Shown: in pieces, positions 5,608 to 22,191 of the stretch
Numbering within the stretch: the first letter of the stretch is position 1
Layout: each line of letters starts with the position of its first letter
Notes under the pieces: model-generated
Told to the model about the DNA's origin: nothing
The model's input: only the letters and a program-made list of their open reading frames with translations
Database searches by the model: none
DNA from: Candidatus Sigynarchaeum calidifontis
GTDB lineage: Archaea; Asgardarchaeota; Lokiarchaeia; Sigyniarchaeales; Sigyniarchaeaceae
Direction: 5' to 3'
NCBI GenBank assembly: GCA_030587475.2
Contig: JAUQYZ020000179.1
Span: 1-22,191, forward strand
DNA length: 22,191 nucleotides
Program-made: the position numbers and the translations under genes

Positions 5608-6900
5608 ATGGATGTTGAGGGTTTCAACCCGTGGTGGCAAGGGGAGCCAGACGAGCAGTTCGTTGCCTGGCAAGCCAGTCCCATCCATTGGATACCAAAA
5701 ATTATTGATAAAATTCATATTACAAACTCGTACAACCTATATTTTTTAACCGGGCCGCGCCAAGTTGGTAAAACAACTGCGTTAAAAATCTTGATCCAGA
5801 AGGAACTTGAAAAGAAACGAGATCCTCATTCGATCCTCTACATCCAATGCGATGAAATACTTGACTTCAAGGAGCTCGGCGATGTGCTCGATAAATACAT
5901 TAAAAGTAAAAATGCACGTGGAATCACGCGATCTTTGATCGTTCTCGATGAGATTCCAACCGTGAGAGAGTGGTGGAGGGCGATCAAGGCACGCATCGAC
6001 GCGTTCCAGTTCAAGAACGACACGATCATCATCACGGGTTCGTCAAGCATCGAGGTGCTCCAGGAACGGGAACGGTTTCCTGGCCGGCGTGGTGATGGGG
6101 TGGACCTCGTCATGTATCCGTTAACCTTTGGCGAGTACGTCGACCTTCATGTCAAGGCGATCGTGCACCAGGATCTCGACCTAACGAAAGACGTTAACGA
6201 TATCGTCCAACCTAATTTGGTATATGCGGGGAAAATTGATACATTGTTTCAAGATTATTTGATAACTGGTGGATTCCCGCTTCCCATCAAGGATTATCTT
6301 GAGGCACGAAAAATCAAGGTAGGTACTAGACATACGTACATGAATTGGATCCAAGGAGACGTGCGTAAGGCTGGGAAGAATGAAATGTTGATGAAAGAAA
6401 TTCTCGGGTTCATCTTGATGGCGCGATGCTCTCCCGTGAGTTGGCTCGGCATCAGCAAAAACACGTCGGTGAATTCGCCCCACACGGCACAGTCTTACAT
6501 CGAAACTCTTGAAAAATTGCACGTGGTCACCATCTTACCCTTTCTTTCTCAAAATGGCACCATCAATAACAAGAAAAACAAAAAAATACATGTCATCGAT
6601 CCATTCATCTATGCGGTCTTACAAGAATACACGGGTGTCAAGATACTCGAAGAAACCGTGGTTGAAAGCATCGTCGCGTCACACCTGTCGCGTGGCTACA
6701 ATACATACTACTGGAAAAATGGCAGTGAGGTAGATGCCATCGCGCTGGTTAATGGCCGGCAAATCGGATTCGAGGTCAAGTGGGGGTACAAGCAGTGGCG
6801 GCAGCCGATTCACCTGAAAAAAACATACTTGCTCACTAAAGACCTGCTTCCCACGTTCATGGCGACCATTCAATTTCCACCGGTTACTCTGCCTTCTTAA
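5608..6900 (+). CDS. AAA+ superfamily ATPase (AAA_14 + DUF4143-type) with C-terminal PD-(D/E)XK-like motif
   Basis: N-terminal FNPWW, Walker A GPRQVGKT, Walker B IVLDEI, ITGSS, FPGRRG, YLITGGFP, C-terminal EVD...FEVK. ATG 5608 preferred over the track's 5569 start because of the TATA position and the NPWW N-terminus. Confidence 0.88.
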   Translation: MDVEGFNPWWQGEPDEQFVAWQASPIHWIPKIIDKIHITNSYNLYFLTGPRQVGKTTALKILIQKELEKKRDPHSILYIQCDEILDFKELGDVLDKYIKSKNARGITRSLIVLDEIPTVREWWRAIKARIDAFQFKNDTIIITGSSSIEVLQERERFPGRRGDGVDLVMYPLTFGEYVDLHVKAIVHQDLDLTKDVNDIVQPNLVYAGKIDTLFQDYLITGGFPLPIKDYLEARKIKVGTRHTYMNWIQGDVRKAGKNEMLMKEILGFILMARCSPVSWLGISKNTSVNSPHTAQSYIETLEKLHVVTILPFLSQNGTINNKKNKKIHVIDPFIYAVLQEYTGVKILEETVVESIVASHLSRGYNTYYWKNGSEVDAIALVNGRQIGFEVKWGYKQWRQPIHLKKTYLLTKDLLPTFMATIQFPPVTLPS

Positions 6901-7059
6901 ATATCCAATGATGGTGCTGAACGCTTCCAGGATGTTCGATTTTCCGCTGTCATTCGCACCATGGATCGCCGAGAACCCATTGTCGAATTTTATTTGCCCG
7001 GTCTTTATCGCGCCGACGTTCTTGAAGCCGCGCAGCCGCATGTGCTTGATGAATACTAT
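6898..7059 (-). pseudogene. smc: smc 5' fragment (about 54 codons), degenerate
   Basis: IVFIKHMRLRGFKNVGAIKTGQIKFDNGFSAIHGANDSGKSNILEAFSTIIGYL vs SMC MVFIKYMRLRGFKSVGATKTVQIDFDKGFSAIVGANGSGKSNILEAFSFVMGNL; start ATG->ATA, Walker A G->D. Confidence 0.9.
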
Positions 7060-8275: not shown

Positions 8276-9979
8276 TTATTCGGAGCCAGATGATGGATCC
8301 AGCACGCAACCACGATCCGCCGGCGCGACCAAGGCCCGATACTTGGCCAGCAGTTTGCTATTGATTCTCGTGGTGGGAACGCGCCATTGCGACCGCCGAT
8401 TGACGAGCTCGGCCTCGGGAACGAGTAAATCGAGCCTTTTACCCGGAACGTCGATGCGGATCGTGTCTCCGTTCTGGACGAGGGCGATCGGCCCGCCGGA
8501 ATACGCCTCTGGACACACGTGGCCGATGCAGGGCCCCTGCGTCGCTCCTGAAAAGCGGCCGTCCGAGACCAACGCGACCCGGTTGAGCTCCTTCATCACC
8601 ATGAGTCCCGTGGTGAACGCGAGCAATTCCGGCATCCCAGGCGCACCTTTCGGCCCTTCGTAACGGATCACGACGACACTATTGTTCTTGATCTCGTTAG
8701 CTGCCAAAGCATTGATGGCCGCCATCTCTGATTCGAAAACAATTGCTGGGCCTTCGAACACGAGCATCGACTGCTCGGAAACGGCGGATTGCTTGATCAC
8801 GGCGCCGCGGGGTGCAAGGCTTCCCTTAAGTATGACCGTGCCGCCTTCGGGATACAGGGGCTTGTCGAGCGGCATGATGATCTTGTCATCTTGCACGAGT
8901 GCTTTCTTGATGTTCTTGCCAACGGTCTTTCCCGTGACGGTCATGCAGTCGAGGTGCAAGAATTTCGAGAGACGGTTCATCACCGCGGGGATGCCACCTG
9001 CTCTGTACAGATCCACGATGGAGTAACGCCCCGACGGTGCCACGTTCACGATCGTGGGAATTTTCTTGGAAAACTGGTTGAACCAATCGAGGTCGAAATC
9101 GATGCCCATTTCATGCGCGATGGCTGGCAAGTGCAAAGCCGAGTTCGTGGAACCCCCGATGGCCACGTCGACCATTAAAGCGTTCTCTAGGGACTCCCGG
9201 GTCATGATCTTGGAAGGGCGCAAATCCTCCTTGAGCATTCCCATGATGCGGCGACCCGATTCCTTGGCGATGCGATATTTCAATGACGTGACGGCGGGCA
9301 TGGCCGCGGCGCCCGGCAGCGTCATGCCGAATGCTTCCATGAGGCACTGCGTCGTGTTTGCCGTGCCCATAACCGAGCAAGCACCATACGTGCTACACGT
9401 GATGCACTTCAGCTTTTTCTCCACGTTCTCGTAAAACCGCGTCTCGATGCCTTGATAATCCTTTTCCGGTCCAAGCTGGACTTCATACATGTTGGGGCCA
9501 CCGGGAACGCAGATCGTCGGGATATCGAGCCGCACGGCCGCCATCAAGATGCCCGGGTTGATCTTGTCGCAAGTAGAGAGGGTGACCAGGGCATCAAACT
9601 TGTGGGCTTCGACCATCGCCTCGATGCTATCGGCGACGATGTCCCGCTGGGGCAGGATGAACCGCATTCCGTCGTGGCCGTTCGCATAGCCATCGCAAGG
9701 CGCGATCGTGTTGAAGAGCATCGGTATGCCACCTGACTCGATGATGCCGTACTTGACGGCCTCGGCAAGCCAGTTTAAATGTGCGTGACCCGGATTTATC
9801 TCGTTCCAGGTCGAGGCGATCCCGATCAGCGGCTTGCTCATGATTTCTTTCTCGTCGAGTCCAAGACCGTTGAAGATTCCGTGCGTCACGTAATAGAATA
9901 GTGTTTGCTTGGTGATGTCGAAGATTTGGTTACTACGTTTCTTGATGTTCGAGGAATTTCCGCTCATGGCCGGTTTCAC
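8276..9979 (-). CDS. ilvD: Dihydroxy-acid / sugar-acid dehydratase (IlvD/Edd family)
   Basis: NPGHAHL, CDG, ADSIE, TCDK, GACSVMGTANT, GGSTN, YEGPKGAPGMPE, DGRFSG, GHVCPEA. Start may be ATG 9967. Substrate uncertain. Confidence 0.88.
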   Translation of the reverse strand: MKPAMSGNSSNIKKRSNQIFDITKQTLFYYVTHGIFNGLGLDEKEIMSKPLIGIASTWNEINPGHAHLNWLAEAVKYGIIESGGIPMLFNTIAPCDGYANGHDGMRFILPQRDIVADSIEAMVEAHKFDALVTLSTCDKINPGILMAAVRLDIPTICVPGGPNMYEVQLGPEKDYQGIETRFYENVEKKLKCITCSTYGACSVMGTANTTQCLMEAFGMTLPGAAAMPAVTSLKYRIAKESGRRIMGMLKEDLRPSKIMTRESLENALMVDVAIGGSTNSALHLPAIAHEMGIDFDLDWFNQFSKKIPTIVNVAPSGRYSIVDLYRAGGIPAVMNRLSKFLHLDCMTVTGKTVGKNIKKALVQDDKIIMPLDKPLYPEGGTVILKGSLAPRGAVIKQSAVSEQSMLVFEGPAIVFESEMAAINALAANEIKNNSVVVIRYEGPKGAPGMPELLAFTTGLMVMKELNRVALVSDGRFSGATQGPCIGHVCPEAYSGGPIALVQNGDTIRIDVPGKRLDLLVPEAELVNRRSQWRVPTTRINSKLLAKYRALVAPADRGCVLDPSSGSE

Positions 9980-10116
9980 GATGGAAAATGATTCTGAAAT
10001 TGATCTTTTCCTATTTGGTTGCAGTTTAAAAAAGCATTAAATTCGGAACTTAAATCTCCCCTTTTGCATTGTCGGACGCCCCTCGGGAGCATCATGGAGC
10101 CCCCTTGGCTTCCCCG

Positions 10117-11364
10117 TTAGAAGAGCTGGATGCTCGTCGGGAACAATGCAACTTTCGGGGAGGGGCCGATGATTTTCTCCAGCTCTTCAACGACCCTGCT
10201 GAAGCTCTTGTGGAGGATCGTCCGCTCCGGGAAAAAATGATGCACGTCTGCCCTGGAGACGTTCTGCGAGTATATGAACAAGGGGTTCGATTCCAGCAAC
10301 GCTTTGTACAAGACGTTCTCCCCGAAATTCTGGTATAATCTGCCCCCGGTTTCTCCTTGCAGCGAATGAAACCCGCGCCCCTCGGACGCGGCAGTCATCA
10401 TCACTACGGGCGCTTTTCGCTGGAACAGCGCGTGGGCCCCGATAAACGCGTTCGTTCCCTTCCCCGATGCCTGAGAAAGCTCGGTATCCTCGGGGTACAT
10501 GTTGAAAAAACCCGCCGAAAAGCGTTCCTTGGGTAACACTTTCGGGATATCCGTGTGGTACACTTCCAAGGCCTGCTCGACGGCCTTGCGGTGCGCGGCG
10601 ATGAAATGCCCGGCATAGACGCCCGCGATGCCCCGCCGGGATGTTGTCACGATATTCACGCTGAAATCGAGGCCGGCCTTGCTGCAAACGTCCTCTATAT
10701 CTTTCCTTAGATCAGTGATGAACCCAAGGCCCACGCCGATGCCTCGCAAGCCGGCCTTGTGGTTTGCTTCGAGCGTATCGATGCCACAAACGCCCGGGAG
10801 TATGACTTTCGCGCCACCGCCAAACCCTGCAAGGGGATGGGGGGCGACCGTGCCCACGGCGATCTTCACCGCCGCGTCGTGGTACGTCTTGTTGATGAAA
10901 ATGGGCGTGCCCTTCTTCGACGTGCCGACGTTGACGAGGTTCTCGTAGGGATGGTGGTTCTCGATATTAACCCTATCGACGACTACCTCGCCCACCTTCT
11001 TGATATAATCCGCGCGGGTCATCGGCCGGTGCGCCCCTAGTGCGCCGATGATCGTTATTTTCGCATCCGGGATCCCCGCATCGTTCAATTCGTCGATGAT
11101 CGACTCGCATATATCCCCGCAGCGTATCGGGCGCGAGATGTCCTCGACGACGATGACGGCGTTCGGTTTTCCCGCTGCTATCGACTTGATCGGAGGCGAT
11201 CCGATGGGATTTCGAATAGCGCGCTGGATCGTGGCCTTGTCCGTGATATCCGGTGCATCTCGCATCCGGAAGACATGGACGTCCCAGCCGTCCGGAAATT
11301 CCAGATCCATGATCTCGTTCCCGCCAGACCACGCGCCCCACGGGATGGTTATTTTCCTCGCCAT
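10117..11364 (-). CDS. Nickel-pincer-dependent lactate racemase (LarA) superfamily alpha-hydroxy-acid racemase/epimerase
   Basis: EDISRP, ALGAHRPM, GTSKKGTP, PHPLAGFGGGAKVILPG, EANH, YPEDTELSQ. Confidence 0.88.
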   Translation of the reverse strand: MARKITIPWGAWSGGNEIMDLEFPDGWDVHVFRMRDAPDITDKATIQRAIRNPIGSPPIKSIAAGKPNAVIVVEDISRPIRCGDICESIIDELNDAGIPDAKITIIGALGAHRPMTRADYIKKVGEVVVDRVNIENHHPYENLVNVGTSKKGTPIFINKTYHDAAVKIAVGTVAPHPLAGFGGGAKVILPGVCGIDTLEANHKAGLRGIGVGLGFITDLRKDIEDVCSKAGLDFSVNIVTTSRRGIAGVYAGHFIAAHRKAVEQALEVYHTDIPKVLPKERFSAGFFNMYPEDTELSQASGKGTNAFIGAHALFQRKAPVVMMTAASEGRGFHSLQGETGGRLYQNFGENVLYKALLESNPLFIYSQNVSRADVHHFFPERTILHKSFSRVVEELEKIIGPSPKVALFPTSIQLF

Positions 11365-11391
11365 GAATCCTTCCTGGTTTGCGTCATTCGA

Positions 11392-12195
11392 TCAGTGCAC
11401 GTGAAGAATGCTTTTGACGGCATTCACTTTTGACATGTGTCCCCCGGTAATCGCGGCCATGGGATCTTTCTTGCCCAAGACCCTGGCCGCGATCTCCTTC
11501 AACGGAACATTCTGCGATCCAAGCGTTTCTACCTTTTGCTGGACCTCGGCCATGAACTCGATCTTCTCGTTCAAACGTTCCTGGCCACCCGGGATCACGC
11601 CGTGGTGCGCGCAGAAGATTTGCTGGATGTTCAAGGGTTTCAGCTTCTTGAGCGACGCGAGTATCGCGTGGAAATCGTCGCGCGGCTGGTATACCAGCGT
11701 CTTCTCACCGATTTGCAAGTCCCCGGAGAAAAGCCAACCCCGGGATTCCTCGTACAAGCAAACGTGATCTGGCGAATGTCCTGGCGTTTCTATCACCTTG
11801 AACACGTGGGTGTTGGTGTGTATTTCGCCGGGTAGCGGTATTGCTGAAGATGGTTCAGGGATTCCCCATGCAAATTTCTGGTAAAATTTCAAGGCTAGCG
11901 ATCTCGGGTTTTCAAGTATCGGAAAGGCTTTTGGATGTGCATATATCTTGGCATTCTTCATTTGCGATAATAAACGATTGTTGCCGATATGATCCTCGTG
12001 ACCGTGCGTGTTGACCACGATCGAGATCTGGATCCCTTCCAACACTTTCTTGAACTCCTTCCGGGCGACCGGGGCTCCCGAATCGACCAGTAAATCGTCG
12101 ACCAGGTAACAATACACGGGAAAAATGAACTTCCCCCCGATGCCACGGCCCATGGATATGATCGTGATATCGCCTACGCGCTCGTGCTTTAGCGT
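11392..12195 (-). CDS. Metallo-beta-lactamase-fold hydrolase (probable ACG start at 12195; first ATG at 12153)
   Basis: VDSG, THGHEDHIG, TPGHSPDH, FSGD and CAH metal-binding motifs; frame is open to 12201 with a GGTGA SD 6 nt before ACG. Confidence 0.85.
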   Translation of the reverse strand, partial: TLKHERVGDITIISMGRGIGGKFIFPVYCYLVDDLLVDSGAPVARKEFKKVLEGIQISIVVNTHGHEDHIGNNRLLSQMKNAKIYAHPKAFPILENPRSLALKFYQKFAWGIPEPSSAIPLPGEIHTNTHVFKVIETPGHSPDHVCLYEESRGWLFSGDLQIGEKTLVYQPRDDFHAILASLKKLKPLNIQQIFCAHHGVIPGGQERLNEKIEFMAEVQQKVETLGSQNVPLKEIAARVLGKKDPMAAITGGHMSKVNAVKSILHVH

Positions 12196-13175
12196 TTCCC
12201 TTCACCAGCATGTTCAAGCGTATTAACGTACCAATCGTACGTGTCTATCGTGGACTCGATATCGGTTTTCGTGGGTTTCCAGCCTAATATTTCTTTTGCA
12301 AGGGTCGTGTCGAACATGTAATCTCGCAGCGCTATTTCCAAGTGTTGTGGTTCAACGGGGGACAGATGCAATTTGTGCAACAATTTCACCAGTAGGCGAG
12401 CAACGCCCGGAGAAAAGCTCGTGATTTTCACTGGCTTGCCCGCGTGCTCGTACAAGGCGACGATGATCTCCCGCATCGTGGGCACGTTATCACTTCCCAA
12501 GTTCATTATCACGCCGTTGGATCTCGGATTGTCGATGGCCAAGAGGATCGCGGTGCACACATCGACAACGTTGACCATCTGGAGCCTTGTTTTCCCGCCG
12601 CCGGCGAGCATCGTCGATTTTCCCTTGTAAGCACTGATGACTTGCCCCAGCAGCGTGGGCTCGTTCTGGCCTGGGCCGGCGATGGTCGGGGGCCGGAAGA
12701 TCGTGATGTTCATGCCCTTTTGTATGTATTCCCTGCACAGCGCCTCGCAAGCAACCTTGTCCTCGCCATACTGGCACACGGGGTTGAGCGGTGCCGTCTC
12801 CGGGCAGGGAACCTTCACGTCGATACCATAGACCTCCACGGATGACAAAAAGATGAATTTCCTGGTCCCTGCTTCATGGGCGGCGGACAAGACGTGTCTC
12901 GTGCCGTCAACGTTGATCGCATGCAAGCATTTCTTGTCCTTCACGAACTGGGCAAGGGCCGCCGCTGAATGGATTACCACGTCAGGTTTTGATGATACCA
13001 CGATGTCCTTGATTCCATGCTCGTCCGTGATGTCGCAAATCCTTTCTTGATACTTTTGATGGGCAATGCCGGAGGGCTTGATGTCGATTCCCATGACTTC
13101 ATAGCCTTTGTCGATGATTTTTTGGACGAGGTGCTTTCCCAAGAAACCGGCACTTCCCGTTATCAATGCTCGCAC
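12189..13175 (-). CDS. NAD-dependent epimerase/dehydratase (extended SDR)
   Basis: ALITGSAGFLG, HSAA, NVDGT, SSVEVYG, YGEDK (YxxxK). GTG 13175 is preceded by GGTGA (13181-13185); the track's 13466 start overlaps the upstream gene. Confidence 0.9.
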   Translation of the reverse strand: MRALITGSAGFLGKHLVQKIIDKGYEVMGIDIKPSGIAHQKYQERICDITDEHGIKDIVVSSKPDVVIHSAAALAQFVKDKKCLHAINVDGTRHVLSAAHEAGTRKFIFLSSVEVYGIDVKVPCPETAPLNPVCQYGEDKVACEALCREYIQKGMNITIFRPPTIAGPGQNEPTLLGQVISAYKGKSTMLAGGGKTRLQMVNVVDVCTAILLAIDNPRSNGVIMNLGSDNVPTMREIIVALYEHAGKPVKITSFSPGVARLLVKLLHKLHLSPVEPQHLEIALRDYMFDTTLAKEILGWKPTKTDIESTIDTYDWYVNTLEHAGEGKR

Positions 13176-13200
13176 ATCGTTCACCGGCTTGTCTTGATAA

Positions 13201-13872
13201 TCAAGGGAGTGGCTTGTCTTGTTCGATTTCAGCCGGGTTCCTCCCCATTTCCAGTTGCTCGAACCACCACGTGTCCGTGGCAATGATCTCCTTGGCTTTT
13301 TTAAGCACGTCCTCCACCCTGTCACCCGGCACGATGACAACACCGTTGATGTCCCCGAAGACCAGGTCGCCTGGATTGATCGTCCGCTTCCCGCATTGCA
13401 TGGGTTTATTGATGCTATCGAAATCAATGACCATCCTCCCGCGGATCGACGAGCAAATGATGCCACGGGCGAACAAGGGGAATTTCAAGGCGGTCACTTG
13501 CGCGATGTCCCGCACAGGCCCGTCGACGAGCCCGCCCTTGAACCCAAAACCCTGGAGCATGCGGCTCGTGCTCTGGCCCAGGCCCGCGGCGATCATCTGG
13601 CCGCTCATGTCGACGCAAGCGACGGGAAATTTTGGAACCGTGGTGATGAATTTTGCCATGCGAGCAACGATGTCACGCTCGAGCGGCGCATCCGACACGA
13701 CCATCTTCATGATAGCCGCAAATCCCACCATCCTGGCCCCTGGCCAAACAGGGCGGATGCCAGGATCGATGAACCCCGCCGGGAGACCAAGCTCGTCGAT
13801 CGCATCTGAGACCGCGCACGTGTATAATTTCTCATATTCCTCGACGAGTTGCCTTATCTCTTTCGTTTTCAA
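13201..13872 (-). CDS. RraA / HMG-CHA aldolase family protein
   Basis: TCAVSDA, GIRPVW...MVGFA, VDGPVRD, PGDLVFGDINGVVIVP; TTG 13872 is preceded by GGTGA (13880-13884). Confidence 0.85.
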   Translation of the reverse strand: MKTKEIRQLVEEYEKLYTCAVSDAIDELGLPAGFIDPGIRPVWPGARMVGFAAIMKMVVSDAPLERDIVARMAKFITTVPKFPVACVDMSGQMIAAGLGQSTSRMLQGFGFKGGLVDGPVRDIAQVTALKFPLFARGIICSSIRGRMVIDFDSINKPMQCGKRTINPGDLVFGDINGVVIVPGDRVEDVLKKAKEIIATDTWWFEQLEMGRNPAEIEQDKPLP

Positions 13873-13912
13873 TTGACAATCACCACAAGGTAATGGATTA
13901 TTCGGAAAACAC

Positions 13913-13928
13913 ATTAATTAAGTTAAAG
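13913..13928 (-). promoter_or_regulatory. AT-rich TATA-like region for the rraA-SDR-MBL-larA operon
   Basis: TTTAACTTAATTAA on the minus strand about 40-55 nt upstream of the TTG start. Confidence 0.45.
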
Positions 13929-14168
13929 AACATCCTCCCTGGTTTCTCGGAATGCTAATCCCGTCGGACATCATGTTAACGAACATGCCGGTTACGAGCC
14001 GCCTCGATACGATGGATCATGCGCTGGCCCCGAACATCGTGTTTCCGTGGGATACTTGCATCATCGTGGCATCGAATGCCGTATTCATCAGCATCGTGAT
14101 TATCATGATCGCCAAGAAACATTCGAGAAAAATGACTCCTTTCCTTTTTGCCAAATGGTGCATGAAAA

Positions 14169-15518
14169 ATGGAGATCGATGACCTCGCGAACGCTGGAAA
14201 TTGCGCGTGCGGACGGCAGCATGCGGTGCGCATCGATATCGTCAGATGCAATCGTGGCGCGCTCGCGGCGGTCCCGGCAATCGTTAAAAAACATCTTGCT
14301 GGCGGGAGTGTCGGGATCTTCTGTGATCGACATACGTTTACAGCGGCTGGCAATGAAGTCGTTAATTATTTGGAAAGGGAAAAGATTCCAAGCAATGTTT
14401 GCGAGCTCAAGCCAGAGGAACGCGTTGTTCCTGACGAAAAAACGATCGACATGGCTCGTGGTTGCGTGTCCAATGACACCCGGTTGCTGCTCGCCGTCGG
14501 AGCCGGCACGATCACCGACATCACGCGGTTCGTCGCCCACGAGCAGCAGATCCCATTCATCTCCATTCCCACAGCGCCGTCGGTCGACGGGTTCGCATCC
14601 GCGACGTCGGCACTCGTCGTTAAGGGTTTGAAGGCATCGTACCCGGCGAGCCCGCCAATAGCCATCGTCGCGGATCTCGAGATCCTGGCAAGGGCACCCC
14701 GCAAGATGAGGGCCGCCGGTTTTGGTGACTTGCTGGGGAAGAGTACTGCCCGCATGGACTGGGAGTTGGCCCGCATCATGAGCCAGGAATATTATTGCGC
14801 AAGGATCGCTAGCATGGTACAAGCGTCTCTTGATGATTGCATCCAGGCTTTCAAAAGCGGGAACATGTATGAAGAAAAAATGACAGGATCCTTGATGGAA
14901 GGCTTGCTCCGTTCCAGCTTGTCCGCCGCGATGGTCGGCTCAACCCGCCCCATCTCCGGTTCCGAGCACCACATCTCGCATTTCCTGGAGATGAAAGGGC
15001 TTGCGGGTGAAGTGCCCGAGCATCTCCACGGCGAGACCGTCGCGTTCGGGACATTAATCGTGTCGGCGCTGTATCACGAGGTTTTTTCCTTGAAACACGA
15101 GGAGCTCGTAGAATTGGCCTTGGAATCCGCGGGCTCCCATCCCCCGGCGGTTCGAGAATCGCGCTTGCTCGCGGCTTATGGCCCCCTGGGTAATAAGATG
15201 GTTGAATCGTGGCGGAACACGATTCACCGGCGTGCAAGCGCTCATGCGGTGCTCGATCGCCTTTCAAATAACTGGGCCGATCTCGCACGCCTCGAGAAAA
15301 AAACCATCTTCAACATTCCAGAGCTCTGTGGCTTGATGACGGAGTCGGGCATTCCCTTCCAACCCGCCAAACTCGGCTACACGGCGGCATTGATCGAGGA
15401 CGCCATCCTTTGTGCAAAGGAAATCCGCGACCGGTACACGATTCTCACGCTTCTCGATGATCTTTCCTTGCTGGAACACTTTTGTGAGGTCGTTCTTGGA
15501 AAGCTCGGCATTCGTTAA
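14169..15518 (+). CDS. sn-glycerol-1-phosphate dehydrogenase, long bacterial AraM-like type
   Basis: N-terminal CACGRQH, VGAGTITD, PTAPSVDGFAS, GFGDLLGK, SGSEHHISH, LHGETV; 449 aa. Confidence 0.85.
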   Translation: MEIDDLANAGNCACGRQHAVRIDIVRCNRGALAAVPAIVKKHLAGGSVGIFCDRHTFTAAGNEVVNYLEREKIPSNVCELKPEERVVPDEKTIDMARGCVSNDTRLLLAVGAGTITDITRFVAHEQQIPFISIPTAPSVDGFASATSALVVKGLKASYPASPPIAIVADLEILARAPRKMRAAGFGDLLGKSTARMDWELARIMSQEYYCARIASMVQASLDDCIQAFKSGNMYEEKMTGSLMEGLLRSSLSAAMVGSTRPISGSEHHISHFLEMKGLAGEVPEHLHGETVAFGTLIVSALYHEVFSLKHEELVELALESAGSHPPAVRESRLLAAYGPLGNKMVESWRNTIHRRASAHAVLDRLSNNWADLARLEKKTIFNIPELCGLMTESGIPFQPAKLGYTAALIEDAILCAKEIRDRYTILTLLDDLSLLEHFCEVVLGKLGIR

Positions 15519-15568
15519 GCAGCCAGTCGAGAGTCCAACGTTAAATTCCTAAAAAGCGACGTTGATTC

Positions 15569-17269
15569 ATGGGAGAAATCACGGTCAACAAGGCCATCGT
15601 GGATATTCTCGTCGAAGCGGGAATCGATCACGCTTTCGGGATGCCCGGGGGCACGACAGACTTTCTTTGGGAAGAGATCTATCTCAGGCACCAAGAGATC
15701 AAGTGCATCATCACGCGCCACGAGGCCGCGGCTGCATGCATGGCCGACATGTACGGCCGGCTAACCAGGAAGCCCGGGGTCTTGATCGGGCAAGGCCCCT
15801 TTATCGGCACGAACGGATCCTTGGGCATCGCGGAAGCTATGTTTGCTGGATCCCCGATGCTGGTCATCGCCGAGTTATCGGATTGGTACGGCGTGAGCCA
15901 CCAGGCACCGTACCAGGTCGCCACGGGTGCCTACGGGAGCATCAACCTGCCGAACATAATGCGATCGATGACGAAATACACCGCGGTCGCGGACACGCCA
16001 GGCGAGGTGCCATACTGCATCGAGTTGGCAATCAAGCACGCCACATCGGGACGACCTGGCCCCGCCGCGGTGCTCATGCGCTGGAACACGCTGGGCGGCC
16101 GTGTGGATCTCGCAAAGGTCACGCCGAAATTGTACCCGATAGGGGGTTTTCTCCGCGTGTCCCCGCCCTCGATCAGCCACGAAGACGCCGTGAAGATAGC
16201 GGAGATGCTGGTGGCGGCGGAGCGACCCGTGATGATCATTGGCCGTGGCATCCACGCGGCGAACGCCTACGATGAGGTGCAGCGGCTAGCCGGACTCCTT
16301 GGCATGCCGGTCGCCACGACCTACATGGGCAAGGGAGGGATCCCGGAGACCCACGACCTGGCGCTCGGGAGCATCGGCACCCTCGGCCAGAAACTCGCGA
16401 ACCAGCACGTCGGGGCGGCGGACGTGATCCTCGCGGTCGGGACGTGCCTTGCGCCCGAGAACACGGACAACCTCAATCCCAAGCTGATAGATCCGGATCG
16501 CCAGAAACTCCTCCACGTCGACATCGACCCTCGCAATGCCGGCTGGACGCTGCCCGTGACCCTCGGCGTCACGTCGGATGCGAAACTCGCCCTGCAAGAG
16601 ATCGTGAAAGCCATCCAGGGCATGAAACTGCCGTTCGACGCCCACGAGCGCGTGGCAGCCCTTGCCAGGCAGAAAATAGACCCGGCTAGCAATTTCTTCC
16701 AGAGTCCCTATTTCGGAAAGGACAGAACGCCGATCGATCCCGAGCGCGTGGTGGAAGTCGTTAACAAGGCGATCGGGGACAATCTGCTCGTGCTCGAATC
16801 GGGAAATGCCCGGGCATGGTTCACCAAGCTGTTCCAAACGAGGCGGCCTGGGCAGATCGTCGCGGGCGGCGGGATGGGTGCAATGGGCTGGGGCGTCCAG
16901 GGAGCCCTGGCGGCGCAGATGCTCTTGCCCGACCAGAGGGTATTCTCGCTCATGGGGGACGGCGCGATGATGATGGCCCTGCACGCGCTGAACATGGCGA
17001 AGCAGTTCAGCCTCCCGATCATCTACCTCGTGATGAACAACGAGTGCATGGGGAACATCCGCGATTACCTGCGGCCCAAGTGTCGCCCCTATGCCGAAAC
17101 GCCCCGCGTCGACTTCGCCGCCACGGCGAAGGCGCTAGGAATCGAAGGGCTACGAGCGGACAGCGCCCAAGAATTGCGGATGGCAATCGAATCGGCACTC
17201 GCCAGCCCGCGCGCGTGCTTGATCGACATCAACACGTCCCAGGCGACGCACATGCGGATCAGGAGTTAG
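15569..17269 (+). CDS. Thiamine-diphosphate-dependent enzyme (acetolactate synthase-like family)
   Basis: FGMPGG, RHEAAAACMAD, AERPVMIIGRG, GAMGWG, ThDP motif GDG...NN; TTAAAT about 25 nt upstream suggests a leaderless transcript. Confidence 0.9.
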   Translation: MGEITVNKAIVDILVEAGIDHAFGMPGGTTDFLWEEIYLRHQEIKCIITRHEAAAACMADMYGRLTRKPGVLIGQGPFIGTNGSLGIAEAMFAGSPMLVIAELSDWYGVSHQAPYQVATGAYGSINLPNIMRSMTKYTAVADTPGEVPYCIELAIKHATSGRPGPAAVLMRWNTLGGRVDLAKVTPKLYPIGGFLRVSPPSISHEDAVKIAEMLVAAERPVMIIGRGIHAANAYDEVQRLAGLLGMPVATTYMGKGGIPETHDLALGSIGTLGQKLANQHVGAADVILAVGTCLAPENTDNLNPKLIDPDRQKLLHVDIDPRNAGWTLPVTLGVTSDAKLALQEIVKAIQGMKLPFDAHERVAALARQKIDPASNFFQSPYFGKDRTPIDPERVVEVVNKAIGDNLLVLESGNARAWFTKLFQTRRPGQIVAGGGMGAMGWGVQGALAAQMLLPDQRVFSLMGDGAMMMALHALNMAKQFSLPIIYLVMNNECMGNIRDYLRPKCRPYAETPRVDFAATAKALGIEGLRADSAQELRMAIESALASPRACLIDINTSQATHMRIRS

Positions 17270-17288
17270 GCATGGACGTTCTGGCCCT

Positions 17289-18638
17289 TCAATACAATGT
17301 AAAGTTGAAAGAATCGTCCCTGCATGGCATGTCCAGGCACGGGAAGCGTCCCCGTGCATTGCCCTTGCCCGGGTTAGCATAGATATAAATTTTCTCGCGC
17401 GTGTGAAGCAGCACGTCGCATCTCGGTTTTTCAGCGCGGGGCTTGACGATCGGGAGCACCGACACGAGCGGCTCGGCGTCGCCTGGCTTGTTAAACCAGT
17501 TCCCCGTGATATCCGGGTTGGCGCGGATGATTTCCCAGTCGGGCCCCAGGTCAAAGGATGCGACCCGATCCCCGCGCGTGTTCACGAGAGCGGCGGCGTT
17601 CCCCAGCACGATTTCGTTGGCGCCGTCCCCGTTCCAATCAACCATCCGGTGGTGGCGGCTGTAATCCATCGAGTATTCCCCGAGGATCGTGCCATCGATG
17701 TCGTAAAGGCGACCGCGATTATTTCCAAAATATGGTCTTGTCGTGATATCTACGTAAAGCCCGAGCTTTCCATCCGGCGAGATCGGGCCGAGGTCGATAC
17801 TCTCGTAATGGTGCCCGTCCGCGTGCTCCCACACGACGTTGCCTTCCCCGTCCACCATCGCCAAGGTATTCCCCCCGCAGTAGGTCAGCACCATCCGCAC
17901 GTCTGCCGGATTCCGTGCCGTTCGCACGACCCGCATCGAGTCCAGGTGTCCATTCGATGCCAGGTTATCCGAATTGAGTGCCCATAGCTCAGACCCATCA
18001 TGATCGAGCATCATGTTCCCCGCGAGTAGTTCATCCTTCCCGTCTCCATCGAGATCGAATGGTTCAGGGTGGTGGCATGTTTTGAAATCCATCCCGAGTG
18101 ATTTATTGCCAAGCTCCTTGCCACCGGGTGGCCATTCCCAGAGCATGTTCCACGTGTTCGTGAACGCCCAGATCTTGGTATAGCGGCTCTTGACGACGAT
18201 GTCTTGCGGCCGCTCTAGCCCCCGGAAATTCGCAAAGGTGATGCAATCGGCCACCTCCAGGCCACGCGGGAGGATCCATTTCGCTTTCTCCTCCCCGTCG
18301 TAGCCTCGCAACACCCTCAAGGTGCGTCCCGTGCTGAACAACACCTCGGGATGCCCGCATCCATCGATGTCGTATATTTGCAACGGGAGATCATAGCCGA
18401 TCTGGTAGTCGCCCGCGCCCGAGGCCCCCCAGGTCCAGAGCACGCTACCATCAAGCATCAGCGCAGCGATTGCAGTGACGTGCTGGGCGACGTTTCTCCC
18501 CGTCACGAGTTCGATCTCCCCGTCACCATCCAGGTCACCCGTTACGACCCAGGCACCTGCGAACTCGGGTGGCTTTTCGATGACTTTCCAGGGCTCTATC
18601 AAGGGCTCAAGTTGCCCCTTGATTTCCGTCTCGAACAA
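17289..18638 (-). CDS. FG-GAP-like repeat beta-propeller protein resembling PL11 rhamnogalacturonan lyases
   Basis: Repeated DxDGDG Ca-binding loops (GDLDGDGEIE, YDIDGCGHPE, FDLDGDGKDELLAG, DWNGDGANEI); probable TTG start at 18638 after GAGGAG/GGGGA. Activity uncertain. Confidence 0.65.
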   Translation of the reverse strand: MFETEIKGQLEPLIEPWKVIEKPPEFAGAWVVTGDLDGDGEIELVTGRNVAQHVTAIAALMLDGSVLWTWGASGAGDYQIGYDLPLQIYDIDGCGHPEVLFSTGRTLRVLRGYDGEEKAKWILPRGLEVADCITFANFRGLERPQDIVVKSRYTKIWAFTNTWNMLWEWPPGGKELGNKSLGMDFKTCHHPEPFDLDGDGKDELLAGNMMLDHDGSELWALNSDNLASNGHLDSMRVVRTARNPADVRMVLTYCGGNTLAMVDGEGNVVWEHADGHHYESIDLGPISPDGKLGLYVDITTRPYFGNNRGRLYDIDGTILGEYSMDYSRHHRMVDWNGDGANEIVLGNAAALVNTRGDRVASFDLGPDWEIIRANPDITGNWFNKPGDAEPLVSVLPIVKPRAEKPRCDVLLHTREKIYIYANPGKGNARGRFPCLDMPCRDDSFNFTLY

Positions 18639-18676
18639 TTCCCCGTTCAACTCCTCTTTTTCGTGTCGTGGCGCGT

Positions 18677-20326
18677 TTAAAAGTACATGTGCGGTCCGAA
18701 TTTCGGGTTTTTCTTGGCCAGCTCGATGGCCTCGTTGCTTGGATCCGCCTCCGCAAGCGTGGCGTGCTTGATCCCGAGCAGGTCCCAATATTCCAATGCG
18801 ATCGCCACGCGTTCCATGAAAAGGGCGTGGTTCTTCTTGTCCTTGGGGGTCCAGCACGTGTCCGCGATGGCGAAAGCTCTCGGGAAGGTGCAATACTCCA
18901 CCTGTGCCTTATTCTGGAAGACCTCGCCCCACATGGGTGCCTCCACGCCGATGATCCCCCCCTCGGCGGCCTTTTTTGCCGCCGCCTTGCTGATGGCCTT
19001 CAATGTCTCCGGGCCGAGCGGGTCATAATGGTACACTTTCTTCAAGGGCAGCGTCGAATACGCCATGTCCATGTACACGGAACTCGAGGGACTCATGAGC
19101 AACCTTCCACCGCGTTCCAGGAATCCGTTCACCTTTTCCAGCGTGCCGGTCCAGTATTGGCATATCACGTGCTCCTTTCGCTCGGCGAGGGTCTCGTCCG
19201 TGTGCTCGTTCCAGAGCATGGTTATCTTGCCAAGGCTTGCTAAATAATCAATTATCTCGGCCGTGAATGTTTTTTGTAGCTCCTCCTCCGTCTTGAGGCC
19301 AAGGGCGGCCATTCTTTCTTGACATCTCTCGCAGCACATCCATTGTGCCTTGGGCACCTCGTCGCCGCCGATGTGGACGATCGGGCCGGGAAACAAGCCA
19401 GCAACCTCCTTGAGGATGTCGTGAAGGAACTCGATGGCCTTCGGGTTACCCGCGCAGATGATGTTCGCGAACACGCCCCAGCTGCTGGCGACCTTGATGT
19501 CGGCACCGTCCAGATGGTGCCCGAATATATCCGCCCCTTGGGGAGGGAAGTCATCGGGGAGAACGCAGCGCATTTCCGGATAGCTCGCCAGCATTGCGGT
19601 CGCGTGCCCGGGCATCTCGATTTCCGGAACGACCACGATGTGCCGGTCGGCTGCATATTCTATTATTTCCTTGATCTGCGCTTGCGTGTAAAAGCCTCCG
19701 TGAGGGATGCCATCGCTGTTCTTCATGCCTTCTGGGGGGCGACCGTTCCGGTAGATGGGCGTGCCGTCGCGCCTGGAGCCGATCTCCGTCAATCTCGGGT
19801 ATTTCTTGATCTCGATGCGCCACCCCTGGTCCTCGGTCAAGTGCCAGTGGAACCGGTTTAGCTTCAAGAGCGCCATCCAATCGAGAACAGATTTCACGAC
19901 GTCCACGCCCAGGAAATATCTCCCCTCGTCAAGCATGTATCCGCGGTAAGGGAAGCGCGGGTAGTCAACGATCTCGCAGCAAGGGATGGCGGATCGAACG
20001 TGCTTGGTTTCATTCTCCTTCGAATCACCCTTGGGCATGAGCCAGCGAATGGTCTGGATGCCGTAGAAGCAGCCGGTCGTGGTGTTCGCATTTATCTCGA
20101 TACGATCCGGTTTAACCGTTAGTACATAGCCTTCAAATCCGATACGATCGATGGGCGCATTCTCGTCCGCGATCGACAAGAAGATGGAAAACCTGGCGAG
20201 GTCCGACGAGCAAGTGCTGAAATCTGCTGGAATGCTTCCGAGATAACTTGCAAGACCTGCTGGAACGGCGTAGACACCATCGCGCTCTTTCAATTCTACC
20301 GGATCGGGGAATATCGTGATCTTCAT
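18677..20326 (-). CDS. Beta-N-acetylhexosaminidase (GH20)
   Basis: DYPRFPYRGYMLDEGR, HWHLTEDQGWR, PEIEMPGH, catalytic HIGGDE, YMD, MWGE; no signal peptide. Confidence 0.93.
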   Translation of the reverse strand: MKITIFPDPVELKERDGVYAVPAGLASYLGSIPADFSTCSSDLARFSIFLSIADENAPIDRIGFEGYVLTVKPDRIEINANTTTGCFYGIQTIRWLMPKGDSKENETKHVRSAIPCCEIVDYPRFPYRGYMLDEGRYFLGVDVVKSVLDWMALLKLNRFHWHLTEDQGWRIEIKKYPRLTEIGSRRDGTPIYRNGRPPEGMKNSDGIPHGGFYTQAQIKEIIEYAADRHIVVVPEIEMPGHATAMLASYPEMRCVLPDDFPPQGADIFGHHLDGADIKVASSWGVFANIICAGNPKAIEFLHDILKEVAGLFPGPIVHIGGDEVPKAQWMCCERCQERMAALGLKTEEELQKTFTAEIIDYLASLGKITMLWNEHTDETLAERKEHVICQYWTGTLEKVNGFLERGGRLLMSPSSSVYMDMAYSTLPLKKVYHYDPLGPETLKAISKAAAKKAAEGGIIGVEAPMWGEVFQNKAQVEYCTFPRAFAIADTCWTPKDKKNHALFMERVAIALEYWDLLGIKHATLAEADPSNEAIELAKKNPKFGPHMYF

Positions 20327-20360
20327 TTAGAAAAGGCCTCGTCTTGTTGGGAAAGAAAAC

Positions 20361-20372
20361 TTGCACGTGCAA
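20361..20372. promoter_or_regulatory. Perfect 12-bp palindrome TTGCACGTGCAA, followed on the minus strand by a T-rich tract
   Basis: Located in the 60-bp gap between the GRE and GH20 genes; could be an operator or attenuator/terminator. Confidence 0.3.
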
Positions 20373-20386
20373 TATCGCGTTGGATT

Positions 20387-22191
20387 TCACGTCCTTTTAT
20401 GCTTCGTCCTTGCAATGATGTGCTCTTGCATGGCCTTGTCGAGCAAAACAAAGCGTTGGCTAAACCCTGACACGCGGACCATCAAGTTTGGATGGAGTTC
20501 GGGATGCTTCATGGCATCCATGAGCACGTCCTCGGTGATCACGTTGAACTGCGCTTGGGGGACGCCCTTGTCAAACGCTGCTTTCACGAGGGAGACCATC
20601 GCGTCAATGTTCTTGTCATCAAACAGGACAGGATCCACTTCGATTATTGCCGATGGCCCGCCCGCTGCCATGTGGTGTGGTAACTTTGATAGGCTGTTCA
20701 GCATGGCGGTCAACCCGTTCACGTCCCTGCCTTGATGCGGTGACAGCGAATATGCCAGGTTCTCGCGGGCCCGGCGCCCGTCGGCGGATGCGCCGGTTCG
20801 CCGGCCGTGGTCAACGAGCCAGAGAAACGTGAACGGCTGCGGGAGGAATCCGCCCTTGAAGATGCCACGATGTTCCTTCAAGCAATCACACGCGTGCTTC
20901 ATGACCTTGGCGGCCAGCAAGTCCACGGAATCCCGGTCGTTCCCATACTTGGCTGCCTTGTTGAGGCACGCGTTTCGCATCCATTCTCCCGATTCCATGT
21001 CGCCGCCTGCCGCCCAGTTCGCGCGGAGCTGGTCGACCAGTTCCTTCAACGTGAACTTTTTCTGGACGAAAACGAGCTCGCGGATGGCCTCGAGGGCATC
21101 CGCAACGTTCGGGATGCCGAAGAGCATGGTTTCGTGCCAGTTATAGAGCGCGCCCCCCTGGTTGAAGTCCCTGCCCGAGTCCAGGCATCCATCGGTCAAG
21201 AGACTCTTGTACGGCATTGGTTTGTGGAGCGCGTGGCGCAGCTCGAGGCGATTGCTTTCGGAACATGCCATGTCGATGAACCGGGATGCTTGAGCCTCGT
21301 AAGCTGCCATCAACGCATCGAACGACTTGAAACTCTCTACATCTCCCGTTTTCAAGCCGACGGGATCGGTGGGGTTGAGGCCGAACGCGAACGGTATCCC
21401 GTTGTTGAGTGCCAACTCGAGACATTTCAGCAAGTTCACCTGGTTGCTCACCGCGTGTGGATTGCACTTGCCCGGGATGGTGATCTCGACGCAGCCGATG
21501 GCACCGTAGTCCCGAGCATCTTCAAGGGCAACGCCGCTGTCCACCAGCGCGGGAATTAGGATATCATCGTTGAAAAAAAACGGGACGCCCATTCCCTTTT
21601 TCACGACCTCGAGCGCCCGTTTTAAAAATGGCTCGGGCGTTCCCTTGTGATACCGGACCGACAAGCACCGGATGAAAGCGAGGGCCTCGGTGGCGTCCAG
21701 CATCATGTAGGACAGCTCGTTCGTGCCATCCGAGCCGTCGGGCCGCAAGCCCCCGATCTGGGCCTGCTGGACGTCGTATTCTCGGTACAGCTTGAGCCAC
21801 AAGCTGCAAATGATCTCGAACGCCCCTTCCTTCGTGAGCTTGCCCGTCTCCATGTCATGCTTGTAATATGGATAGAGGATTTGGTCCAACCTTCCCAGCG
21901 AGTTCGCGTTGATGCCATCCTCCCACGTGTTGATGATGTGGGCGAACCAAAAAGCCTGCACGGCCTCGCGGAAGCTACGGGCGGGTTCTCGCGGGACACG
22001 CCTGCACGTGGCCGCGATCTCCCGGAGCTCCCGTTTACGTTCCTCGGACACGATAGACGCAGCCAGCTTCTCCGCTGCATCCGCGTACCGGTCCCCCATC
22101 GTGCAAGCGGCTTCCACGATTTCTCGGATGCAATTGATGAGGTGGCGCTTCAAGAAAGATGCGGGATCCCGCAACGACAGCGCCTTTTCAC
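20387..22191 (-). CDS. Glycyl radical enzyme (PFL2/glycerol-dehydratase-like), 5'-truncated by the window edge
   Basis: Single-Cys GCVE loop, C-terminal glycyl motif RVSGFS, SLGRLDQ, RVPREPARSFREAVQ; frame is open to 22191. Confidence 0.93.
   Translation of the reverse strand, partial: EKALSLRDPASFLKRHLINCIREIVEAACTMGDRYADAAEKLAASIVSEERKRELREIAATCRRVPREPARSFREAVQAFWFAHIINTWEDGINANSLGRLDQILYPYYKHDMETGKLTKEGAFEIICSLWLKLYREYDVQQAQIGGLRPDGSDGTNELSYMMLDATEALAFIRCLSVRYHKGTPEPFLKRALEVVKKGMGVPFFFNDDILIPALVDSGVALEDARDYGAIGCVEITIPGKCNPHAVSNQVNLLKCLELALNNGIPFAFGLNPTDPVGLKTGDVESFKSFDALMAAYEAQASRFIDMACSESNRLELRHALHKPMPYKSLLTDGCLDSGRDFNQGGALYNWHETMLFGIPNVADALEAIRELVFVQKKFTLKELVDQLRANWAAGGDMESGEWMRNACLNKAAKYGNDRDSVDLLAAKVMKHACDCLKEHRGIFKGGFLPQPFTFLWLVDHGRRTGASADGRRARENLAYSLSPHQGRDVNGLTAMLNSLSKLPHHMAAGGPSAIIEVDPVLFDDKNIDAMVSLVKAAFDKGVPQAQFNVITEDVLMDAMKHPELHPNLMVRVSGFSQRFVLLDKAMQEHIIARTKHKRT

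Follow-up and report, generated by a model that had tools for sequence, protein, structure and literature searches.

The locus

The window analysed here is the whole of contig C182, 22,191 bases of a 5.0-Mb Asgard metagenome-assembled genome (MAG; 89% complete) of Candidatus Sigynarchaeum calidifontis. Our subject is a block of five genes on its minus strand, encoding an RraA-like lyase, an extended short-chain dehydrogenase/reductase (SDR), a metallo-beta-lactamase (MBL)-fold hydrolase, the nickel-pincer (NPN) enzyme LarA and an IlvD-type dehydratase. An earlier note, made from the sequence alone, had placed this block among ten adjacent enzyme genes in four apparent transcription blocks and had read all ten as one candidate pathway. 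The physical description agrees with the strands and gaps, and the listing of open reading frames together with the Pfam and NCBIfam scans bears out all ten genes with their domains and places. The outer five encode a glycyl radical enzyme (GRE), a GH20 glycoside hydrolase, a beta-propeller protein, a dehydrogenase resembling glycerol-1-phosphate dehydrogenase (G1PDH) and a thiamine diphosphate (ThDP) enzyme. We designate the window's genome G000, a genome of the same genus G001 and one of the same family G003. The genes of the five-gene block are as follows.

8276-9979, minus strand: IlvD/Edd-family Fe-S dehydratase (ILVD_EDD_N and ILV_EDD_C, Pfam 397.5 and 238.8 bits)
10117-11364, minus strand: LarA (Lar_N) nickel-pincer 2-hydroxy-acid epimerase/racemase (Pfam Lar_N, 188 bits)
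11392-12153, minus strand: MBL-fold hydrolase, proposed lactonase (Pfam Lactamase_B, 87.1 bits)
12189-13175, minus strand: extended (GalE-like) SDR, proposed sugar 1-dehydrogenase (Pfam Epimerase, 148.6 bits)
13201-13872/13914, minus strand: RraA-like lyase, probable class II pyruvate aldolase or decarboxylase (Pfam RraA-like, 87.6 bits)

The gaps from RraA through SDR and MBL to LarA measure 25-35 nt, and 137 nt lie between LarA and IlvD. RraA is the first gene of the block; its likely start at 13872 gives a protein of 223 aa, the same form as the database gene call. The SDR begins with GTG, 5 nt after a GGTGA motif, a start placed by alignment to orthologues that begin MKILITG. At 12154-12205 we observed that the MBL orthologue of G013 (L139) begins some 13 residues ahead of the first ATG in the window's gene. 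The window's MBL may therefore truly begin a few codons further upstream, at a non-canonical codon overlapping the SDR stop. The ORF listing and a Pfam scan of the whole contig revealed no transporter, kinase or regulator, as the earlier note had remarked; the corresponding unit of relatives does carry a transporter and a glycosidase.

Conservation of the five-gene block

Gene neighbourhoods were surveyed from three anchors. For the first, 40 relatives and the species-representative genomes supplied LarA orthologues of 44-66% identity, whose flanks of up to 10 kb were searched with all window proteins. RraA was sought in 300 sampled Asgard genomes, from which 20 further loci were fetched, and a metagenome scan with the SDR yielded six loci with orthologues 62-87% identical.

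RraA orthologues (62-73% identity) occur in 24 of the 300 genomes, nearly all of them in the window's taxonomic order. An IlvD orthologue adjoins RraA wherever the flank suffices, save at one locus (L127/G323). With the same exception, 20 RraA loci show a divergent RraA/IlvD pair and a glycoside hydrolase (GH)-like gene wherever the contig is long enough; genes for an aldehyde oxidoreductase (AOR) and for an MFS_2 symporter are frequent at these loci, and LarA is present in about a third. The exceptional locus, G323:C100:25564-26244, holds an RraA orthologue (71%) with one in-frame TGA, and is the sole resolvable locus where no IlvD lies alongside.

From the LarA anchor, at least 10 MAGs share a cluster of AOR, LarA, MFS_2 symporter, IlvD, RraA and a large GH-like protein, and altogether at least 20 Asgard loci combine the GH-like gene with RraA and IlvD, often together with AOR, MFS_2 or LarA. 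This GH-like partner has a full-length GH38 alpha-mannosidase fold (Foldseek E 1e-20 to 3e-22, TM 0.57-0.64, from a structure model of pLDDT 82), and its conserved Glu aligns with the GH38 nucleophile Asp. The window's own genome has a GH38-like paralogue on C67, which sits among esterases and peptidases. G009 carries MFS_2, GH-like, RraA, SDR, MBL, IlvD and LarA genes in a single co-directional run, and even the distant genome G121 holds LarA (28%), RraA (45%) and AOR (40%) together.

The SDR anchor leads to the same neighbourhood. SDR orthologues over all surveys are 60-87% identical, and MBL is always paired with the SDR. RraA, LarA and/or IlvD flank the SDR at all six metagenome loci, and the MBL gene follows at five of them; the sixth contig (L159) ends inside the SDR, so that only LarA is visible. 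The SDR-MBL pair recurs with RraA, LarA or IlvD on L154, L155, L156/157 and L158, and metagenome contig L154 has the window's exact order, RraA-SDR-MBL-LarA-IlvD, at 85% nucleotide identity. RraA and SDR orthologues are absent from the same-genus genome G001 and likewise from the same-family genome G003. All 70 public loci with LarA relatives belong to Asgard MAGs (Promethearchaeota/Lokiarchaeia and Hel-, Thor-, Hod-, Hermod-, Jord-, Frey-, Atabey- and Heimdall-type), and one close RraA homologue is labelled Sigynarchaeota.

RraA-SDR-MBL-LarA-IlvD is therefore a real, recurrent unit whose clustering is far beyond chance. Its core consists of RraA, IlvD and the GH-like gene. AOR and MFS_2 are modular additions; so are LarA and the pair of SDR and MBL, which are optional and have turned up repeatedly, in several lineages. 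An alternative would be that there is no pathway at all, and that unrelated paralogues of the housekeeping proteins IlvD, IlvB, EgsA and GalE came together by chance in a rearranged accessory region. The window's IlvD does pass the TIGR00110 model, the G1PDH-like protein is the genome's best match to a G1PDH model, and the region shows rearrangement against G001 as well as an inserted cassette. However, the housekeeping IlvD lies elsewhere, near ilvC; independent lineages repeat the order of the five genes, at 42-90% identity; and RraA and IlvD adjoin in all but one resolvable locus. We regard chance as a highly improbable explanation of the locus as a whole, and yet as the best description of how the outer five genes stand to the five-gene block.

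In several of the loci surveyed (L057, L061, L064, L118, L156 and L157), LarA or SDR-MBL is adjoined by paired genes for CoA-transferase subunits, frequently accompanied by a gene of the nitroreductase family.

The dehydratase

The genome has three IlvD copies. The one in the window scores lowest on TIGR00110 (628 bits against a cut-off of 618), while the copy on C77 scores highest, at 734 bits, and is two genes away from the one for ketol-acid reductoisomerase (KARI, ilvC). Aligned to the dihydroxy-acid dehydratase of M. tuberculosis (6ovt), the window's protein keeps the PCDG, CDK, GAC and DGRFSG motifs. In the IlvD tree it pairs with a gene of G001 (66% identity), and together they form the sister group of the cluster-borne IlvD clade; the other two paralogues of the genome fall far from both the window copy and the cluster IlvDs. 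The G001 partner has a prephenate dehydratase gene next to it and no other module genes nearby. The window's IlvD is thus a non-housekeeping paralogue, the housekeeping copy being placed elsewhere, near ilvC. For annotation, this warns against calling the paralogue a "branched-chain amino-acid" enzyme.

Comparison with L154 reveals the history of this gene. Between the start of RraA and the stop of LarA (window 13922-10110) the two contigs share 85% of their nucleotides, against 69% within IlvD, and synteny returns beyond IlvD, where L154 9403-9473 matches window 6888-6818 at 93%. The sharp drop in identity exactly at the LarA stop, together with the 137-nt gap between LarA and IlvD, shows that the dehydratase gene was exchanged in place: its slot was kept while the occupant changed.

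LarA

The window's LarA scores below the cut-off of every curated NCBIfam LarAH subgroup, which sets it apart from the members of the LAR, MAR, GntE, HHR and hexonate epimerase groups. Its best match is the LarAH6 malate racemase model (222.5 against 500); malate and lactate racemase models are closer than those for hexonate and gluconate epimerases, which score it at 36-48 bits (hexonate 36 against 500). It nevertheless shares the Lar_N fold and the catalytic and NPN-binding residues of LarA1 (5HUQ), the malate racemase Mar2 (6D6Z) and GntE. R78, H112, H176, K186 and H202, which line up with R75, H108, H174, K184 and H200 of 5huq, do not vary among 26 orthologues, and the equivalents of Q295 and K298 of L. 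plantarum LarA are also kept. The residues after the catalytic His read P-L; LarA1 has F-F at this place and GntEs usually E-V (PMC11770544). The region of the LarA1 specificity positions W358/T359 is variable and aligns poorly in the profile alignment to 5huq. The window's LarA belongs to an Asgard-specific LarA subgroup, which has the invariant motifs ENHHPYEN and EGRGxHSL of its own. Of all phyla, the Asgard phylum has the highest reported LarA prevalence, at 87.5% (PMC11770544).

The LarA tree has three clades. One, apart from the window's, is almost entirely cluster-borne, and in another IlvD lies beside LarA only in L083 and in the basal L081/G009, the latter with the SDR/MBL operon. LarA genes of all three clades are thus found beside IlvD or RraA, an association that was either repeated or retained and that we read as functional coupling. 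For the biosynthesis of the NPN cofactor, the genome encodes LarC above cut-off, split at the ends of contigs C104 and C54.

A putative sugar-acid pathway

We propose that the window holds a five-gene accessory Asgard sugar-acid module beside five separately inherited passenger genes, which belong to a glycan- and head-group-degrading island that continues on contig C51. We put the probability of this reading at a little better than even, about 0.55. The most likely function of the module, judging from the enzyme families, is an oxidative, non-phosphorylative Entner-Doudoroff (ED)/Dahms-like route assembled from non-canonical families.

Hypothetically, the route would begin in relatives with import of a glycoside by the MFS_2 symporter and release of the sugar by the GH38-fold glycosidase. 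The extended SDR would oxidize the free sugar at C1 to a lactone, which the MBL hydrolase would open to the aldonate. The nickel-pincer LarA would then invert the aldonate at C2 so that it suits the dehydratase, the IlvD-type Fe-S enzyme would convert it to a 2-keto-3-deoxy acid, and the RraA-fold lyase would cleave this into pyruvate and an aldehyde. In relatives, a dedicated tungsten-type AOR would oxidize the aldehyde with ferredoxin as acceptor. Given the GH38 fold, mannose is at most a reasonable guess for the sugar, with LarA turning mannonate into gluconate. In this respect the earlier note was well founded, as the enzyme families of the five-gene unit do fit oxidation, lactone hydrolysis, C2 epimerization, dehydration and C-C cleavage.

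The logic from sugar to lactone, aldonate, 2-keto-3-deoxy acid, pyruvate and aldehyde, and finally oxidation of the aldehyde, is that of the known non-phosphorylative ED and Dahms pathways of Sulfolobus, Thermoplasma and Picrophilus and of Caulobacter and E. coli (YjhG/YjhH) (PMC9795676, PMC6336799). The bacterial versions use IlvD/Edd-type aldonate dehydratases, as we propose for the module. However, the known lyases are of the DHDPS/NAL or HpcH type rather than RraA-fold, and the known hydrolases of the SMP30 or amidohydrolase type rather than MBL-fold. The module would also insert a nickel-pincer C2 epimerase, the aldehyde oxidizer in relatives would be a tungsten-type AOR, and the host is an anaerobic Asgard archaeon. 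No characterized version has a lyase, lactonase or epimerase of these families, or such an AOR. What matches in this comparison is the co-conservation and the dehydratase family; SDR, MBL and RraA come from families that the known pathways do not use, and we infer their roles. The C2 epimerization of a sugar acid proposed for LarA has a counterpart in the GntE D-gluconate 2-epimerases (PMC7583248, PMC11770544).

For RraA the closest characterized comparison is the P. putida HMG/CHA aldolase (3NOJ), where HMG stands for 4-hydroxy-4-methyl-2-oxoglutarate and CHA for 4-carboxy-4-hydroxy-2-oxoadipate. The two share the RraA-like fold and the Arg-Asp pair at the metal/pyruvate site: R135-D136 of the window's protein, invariant in 30 orthologues, correspond to R123/D124 of 3noj. 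The similarity is weak (46 bits over about 160 aligned residues), the protein falls below the equivalog cut-offs (NF006731, 70 against 179; TIGR02798, 67 against 304), and 3NOJ acts in aromatic degradation whereas the window's RraA stands in a sugar-acid context.

Several observations weigh against the proposed route. The Asp102 equivalent of the aldolase is a conserved Gln114 in RraA, within a conserved GQSTS motif. We know of no RraA-fold enzyme that cleaves 2-keto-3-deoxy aldonates, and the one sugar-acid RraA enzyme in the literature, FlDet, is a KDGR dehydratase/decarboxylase (PMC8563752). The best structural matches of the SDR are nucleotide-sugar 4-epimerases, at only about 89 bits, and the MBL protein, which keeps HxHxDH (as THGHEDH), is nearest to generic glyoxalase-II-like hydrolases. 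With the SDR epimerase-like and the MBL glyoxalase-II-like, a "sugar dehydrogenase plus lactonase" pair is suggested by context only. The other members of the window's LarA clade are found in unrelated contexts, and the closest orthologues (62-66%, from Atabey-, Jord-, Frey- and Heimdall-type MAGs) have neighbours such as a protease, a P-type ATPase, a sulfatase and KARI. LarB gave partial matches only, below cut-off, in this 89% complete genome. The window's IlvD is a swapped-in copy from the sister clade, behind the 137-nt gap. The window contains no GH38-type glycosidase, cluster-type AOR or transporter, and the recurrent CoA-transferase genes are not explained by a sugar-acid model.

The behaviour of FlDet opens a different reading of the same genes. 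It comes from an alginate degrader and makes 2-oxoglutarate semialdehyde out of 2-keto-3-deoxy-glucarate (PMC8563752), and like the HMG/CHA aldolase it would share with the window's RraA the substrate class of 4-hydroxy-2-oxo acids. With FlDet as precedent, RraA could be a 2-keto-3-deoxy-acid dehydratase/decarboxylase of a Weimberg or oxidative-uronate pathway, yielding 2-oxoglutarate semialdehyde, from which AOR would form 2-oxoglutarate in relatives. In that case the SDR would act as a dehydrogenase on a uronate or pentose, and LarA would epimerize an aldarate or pentonate. AOR suits oxidation of the semialdehyde equally, and heparinase II/III-like genes lie on the adjoining contig. The MFS_2 family includes hexuronide carriers. 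A LarA homologue epimerizes D-arabinarate (PMC11770544). However, the conserved glycosidase has an alpha-mannosidase fold and is not a uronidase or lyase, and RraA shows no variation in its Arg-Asp pair, which is typical of HMG/CHA aldolases that form pyruvate. We consider this reading unlikely.

The bias of LarA towards malate racemase models over hexonate or gluconate epimerase models raises a third reading, in which the substrate of the core trio would not be a sugar acid but a small dicarboxylic acid or a 2,3-dihydroxy acid of short chain (tartrate-, malate- or glycerate-like). LarA would set the stereochemistry, IlvD would produce oxaloacetate or pyruvate, and RraA would be an oxaloacetate decarboxylase. 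The NCBIfam models that RraA matches name HMG/CHA aldolases also as oxaloacetate decarboxylases, and LarA homologues racemize glycerate and 2,3-dihydroxy acids (PMC11770544). Nevertheless, a short acid would leave the GH38-fold glycosidase, the glycoside-type MFS_2 symporter, the SDR+MBL pair and the AOR without explanation, and we hold it to be quite improbable.

We return to the ED/Dahms-like reading for its most far-reaching form, which we offer as a long shot. The module might constitute a complete kinase-free, ferredoxin-linked glycolytic bypass in which IlvD acts twice, on the aldonate and again from glycerate to pyruvate, RraA represents a new class of 2-keto-3-deoxy-sugar-acid aldolase, and LarA funnels in mannonate-type epimers from GH38-released mannose. 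Such a bypass would be a natural counterpart of synthetic "minimized" cell-free glycolysis cascades. As a separate long shot, the orphan GRE, with its HexNAc-cleaving glycosidase neighbours in two genomes, could represent a novel kind of radical enzyme whose substrate derives from an amino sugar.

In our search of the literature, no description of the module in Asgard archaea came up. The AOR-type cluster of relatives (GH38-like/AOR/LarA/IlvD/RraA/MFS) uses the same RraA, IlvD and LarA families, with orthologues 54-73% identical. In contrast to it, the window has the SDR+MBL variant, lacks the GH38-like, AOR and transporter genes, and carries a LarA of another clade and an IlvD of the sister clade. 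New in this window are the SDR/MBL variant, in a family in which no other sampled genome has the module, a LarA from a different clade, the exchange of IlvD in place and the negative result for the outer five genes. Among known prokaryotes the Asgard archaea are the nearest relatives of eukaryotes, and what is known of how they metabolize sugars comes almost entirely from gene lists. If the proposed route is true, these fermenters have an accessory way of turning sugar into pyruvate that needs no sugar kinase and feeds ferredoxin. Estimates of their energy yield would then change, and the module would give first physiological roles to the Asgard-specific LarA subgroup, to an RraA-fold sugar-acid lyase and to an MBL-fold lactonase.

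The other five genes

The remaining genes of the ten are as follows.

14169-15518, plus strand: Fe-ADH_2 family, AraM/G1PDH-like dehydrogenase, 449 aa (Pfam/NCBIfam)
15569-17269, plus strand: ThDP enzyme of the acetolactate-synthase superfamily (all three TPP domains)
17289 to about 18686 (start inferred), minus strand: FG-GAP/RGL11_C-like beta-propeller (Pfam FG-GAP_3, RGL11_C)
18677-20326, minus strand: GH20 beta-N-acetylhexosaminidase (Pfam Glyco_hydro_20, 330.9 bits; domain 2, 50.6 bits)
20387-22191, minus strand: eliminase-type GRE, C-terminal 600 aa (PFL-like and Gly_radical)

The gap from the G1PDH-like to the ThDP gene is 50 nt and that from GRE to GH20 60 nt, while GH20 and the propeller overlap. 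In about 110 loci none of these five genes was ever found next to a LarA or RraA orthologue. The LarA-anchor loci held no GRE, GH20, FG-GAP or G1PDH-like gene; the only ThDP match among them is a 52% homologue about 8 kb from LarA in G002.

Each gene or pair has a distribution of its own. Among 101 genomes of the order, the G1PDH-like gene occurs only in G000 and G001. It scores 186-201 bits on the EgsA model NF002022 (cut-off 413). Within the genome it matches the archaeal G1PDH model best, and no copy reaches the cut-off. On G001:C432 (L121 9916-12154) its orthologue lies divergent to a glycerophosphodiester phosphodiesterase (GDPD) gene, in a region that has no RraA or ThDP gene nearby and is syntenic with contig C51 rather than with the module. 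This neighbour hints at a role in the catabolism of glycerophosphodiester head groups rather than in sugar metabolism.

The ThDP enzyme is below all NCBIfam cut-offs (acolac_lg, TIGR00118, 287 against 538), has BbmA as its best structural match (230 bits) and is only 26-29% identical to the other paralogues of the genome. An orthologue (79%) in G003 sits beside a heparinase II/III-like gene. Homologues of 51-53% identity lie directly downstream of AOR genes on G001:C58 (L151) and G002:C458 (L034 15888-19316), and such AOR-ThDP pairs may combine a 2-oxo-acid decarboxylase or carboligase with an aldehyde oxidoreductase.

GH20 and the propeller are a real pair: in G001 the GH20 gene (68%) is directly followed by the propeller gene (79%). 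G001 has no GRE orthologue, and neither has any of the 300 Asgard genomes; only the same-family G003 has one (79%). The GRE of the window runs off the contig, and its N-terminal part of about 184 aa is found on C51:1-650 on the right strand. Window positions 22092-22191 overlap the first 100 nt of C51 at 86% identity, with the inner 45 nt identical and the mismatches at the C51 end, and in G003 both parts form one frame of 775-782 aa. After the GRE, C51 continues with saccharopine-dehydrogenase-like, FAD-oxidoreductase and GDPD genes, two large unknown genes (one of them heparinase II/III_C-like) and a CobW-like gene, syntenic with G001:C432.

The GRE keeps the RVSGF Gly-radical motif and the GCVE loop. 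The motif and the Cys-x-Glu loop also occur in its nearest structure, the B12-independent glycerol dehydratase of C. butyricum (1R8W, 380 bits); however, three glycerol-binding residues, H281, S282 and D447 of 1r8w, read N, A and V in the window's protein, and no activase lies adjacent to it. On the NCBIfam PFL2-3 model it scores 452 against 678. In both genomes that have it, the GRE adjoins a glycosidase that cleaves N-acetylhexosamine (HexNAc): GH20 here, and in G003:C1 (L147 4880-11422) a 1148-aa GH123-like gene of the beta-N-acetylgalactosaminidase family. No activase gene was found on C182, on C51 or beside the G003 orthologue; four activases of the genome lie beside other GREs. The G003 genome has its GRE and ThDP genes more than 600 kb apart, and orthologues of RraA, SDR, the G1PDH-like gene and GH20 are absent from it.

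These data bear directly on the reading of all ten genes as one anaerobic pathway, in which GH20 and the propeller would release the sugar, the ED-like core would process it, the ThDP enzyme would decarboxylate a 2-oxo acid and the GRE would form a side branch. The genes are physically adjacent in this genome, the ThDP homologues downstream of AOR in G001 and G002 make an aldehyde/2-oxo-acid link plausible, and the GRE stands next to a HexNAc-cleaving glycosidase in two genomes; the last two observations are weak leads. However, the outer five genes are absent near LarA and RraA orthologues in about 110 loci, three phyletic patterns are found within one archaeal family, the conserved glycosidase is GH38-fold and not GH20, and the GRE has no activase nearby. 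The three phyletic patterns mark the outer genes as separate units, and the single pathway is already largely refuted by missing co-conservation; we judge it very unlikely. Gene-neighbourhood conservation, the check that the earlier note had suggested, thus divides its proposal: RraA-SDR-MBL-LarA-IlvD is co-conserved, and GRE, GH20, propeller, G1PDH-like and ThDP genes are not. The GRE branch falls with its deviating phyletic pattern and its absence beside LarA and RraA orthologues, and glycan release by GH20 gives way to the GH38-fold glycosidase that travels with the module. Physical adjacency in a rearranged accessory island is no evidence of one pathway.

A link to sulfoquinovose through a sulfo-ED pathway, joining the IlvD-type enzyme, the GRE (sulfopropanediol dehydratase models) and the ThDP enzyme (Xsc), was also considered and rejected, as the scores are far below cut-offs and there is no co-conservation.

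Activase and GRE are normally separate proteins. Elsewhere in the window's genome, frames of 1129 and 1117 aa at C205:1414-4653 and C265:7700-10936 appear to be fusions of an N-terminal glycyl-radical activase (TIGR02494) with a GRE.

The upstream part of the window holds scpB, smc, a low-GC cassette encoding an AAA_14/DUF4143 ATPase, and a PIN gene. Behind the cassette, at 6880-7059, lies a second smc 5' end with 72% amino acid identity to SMC residues 1-60.

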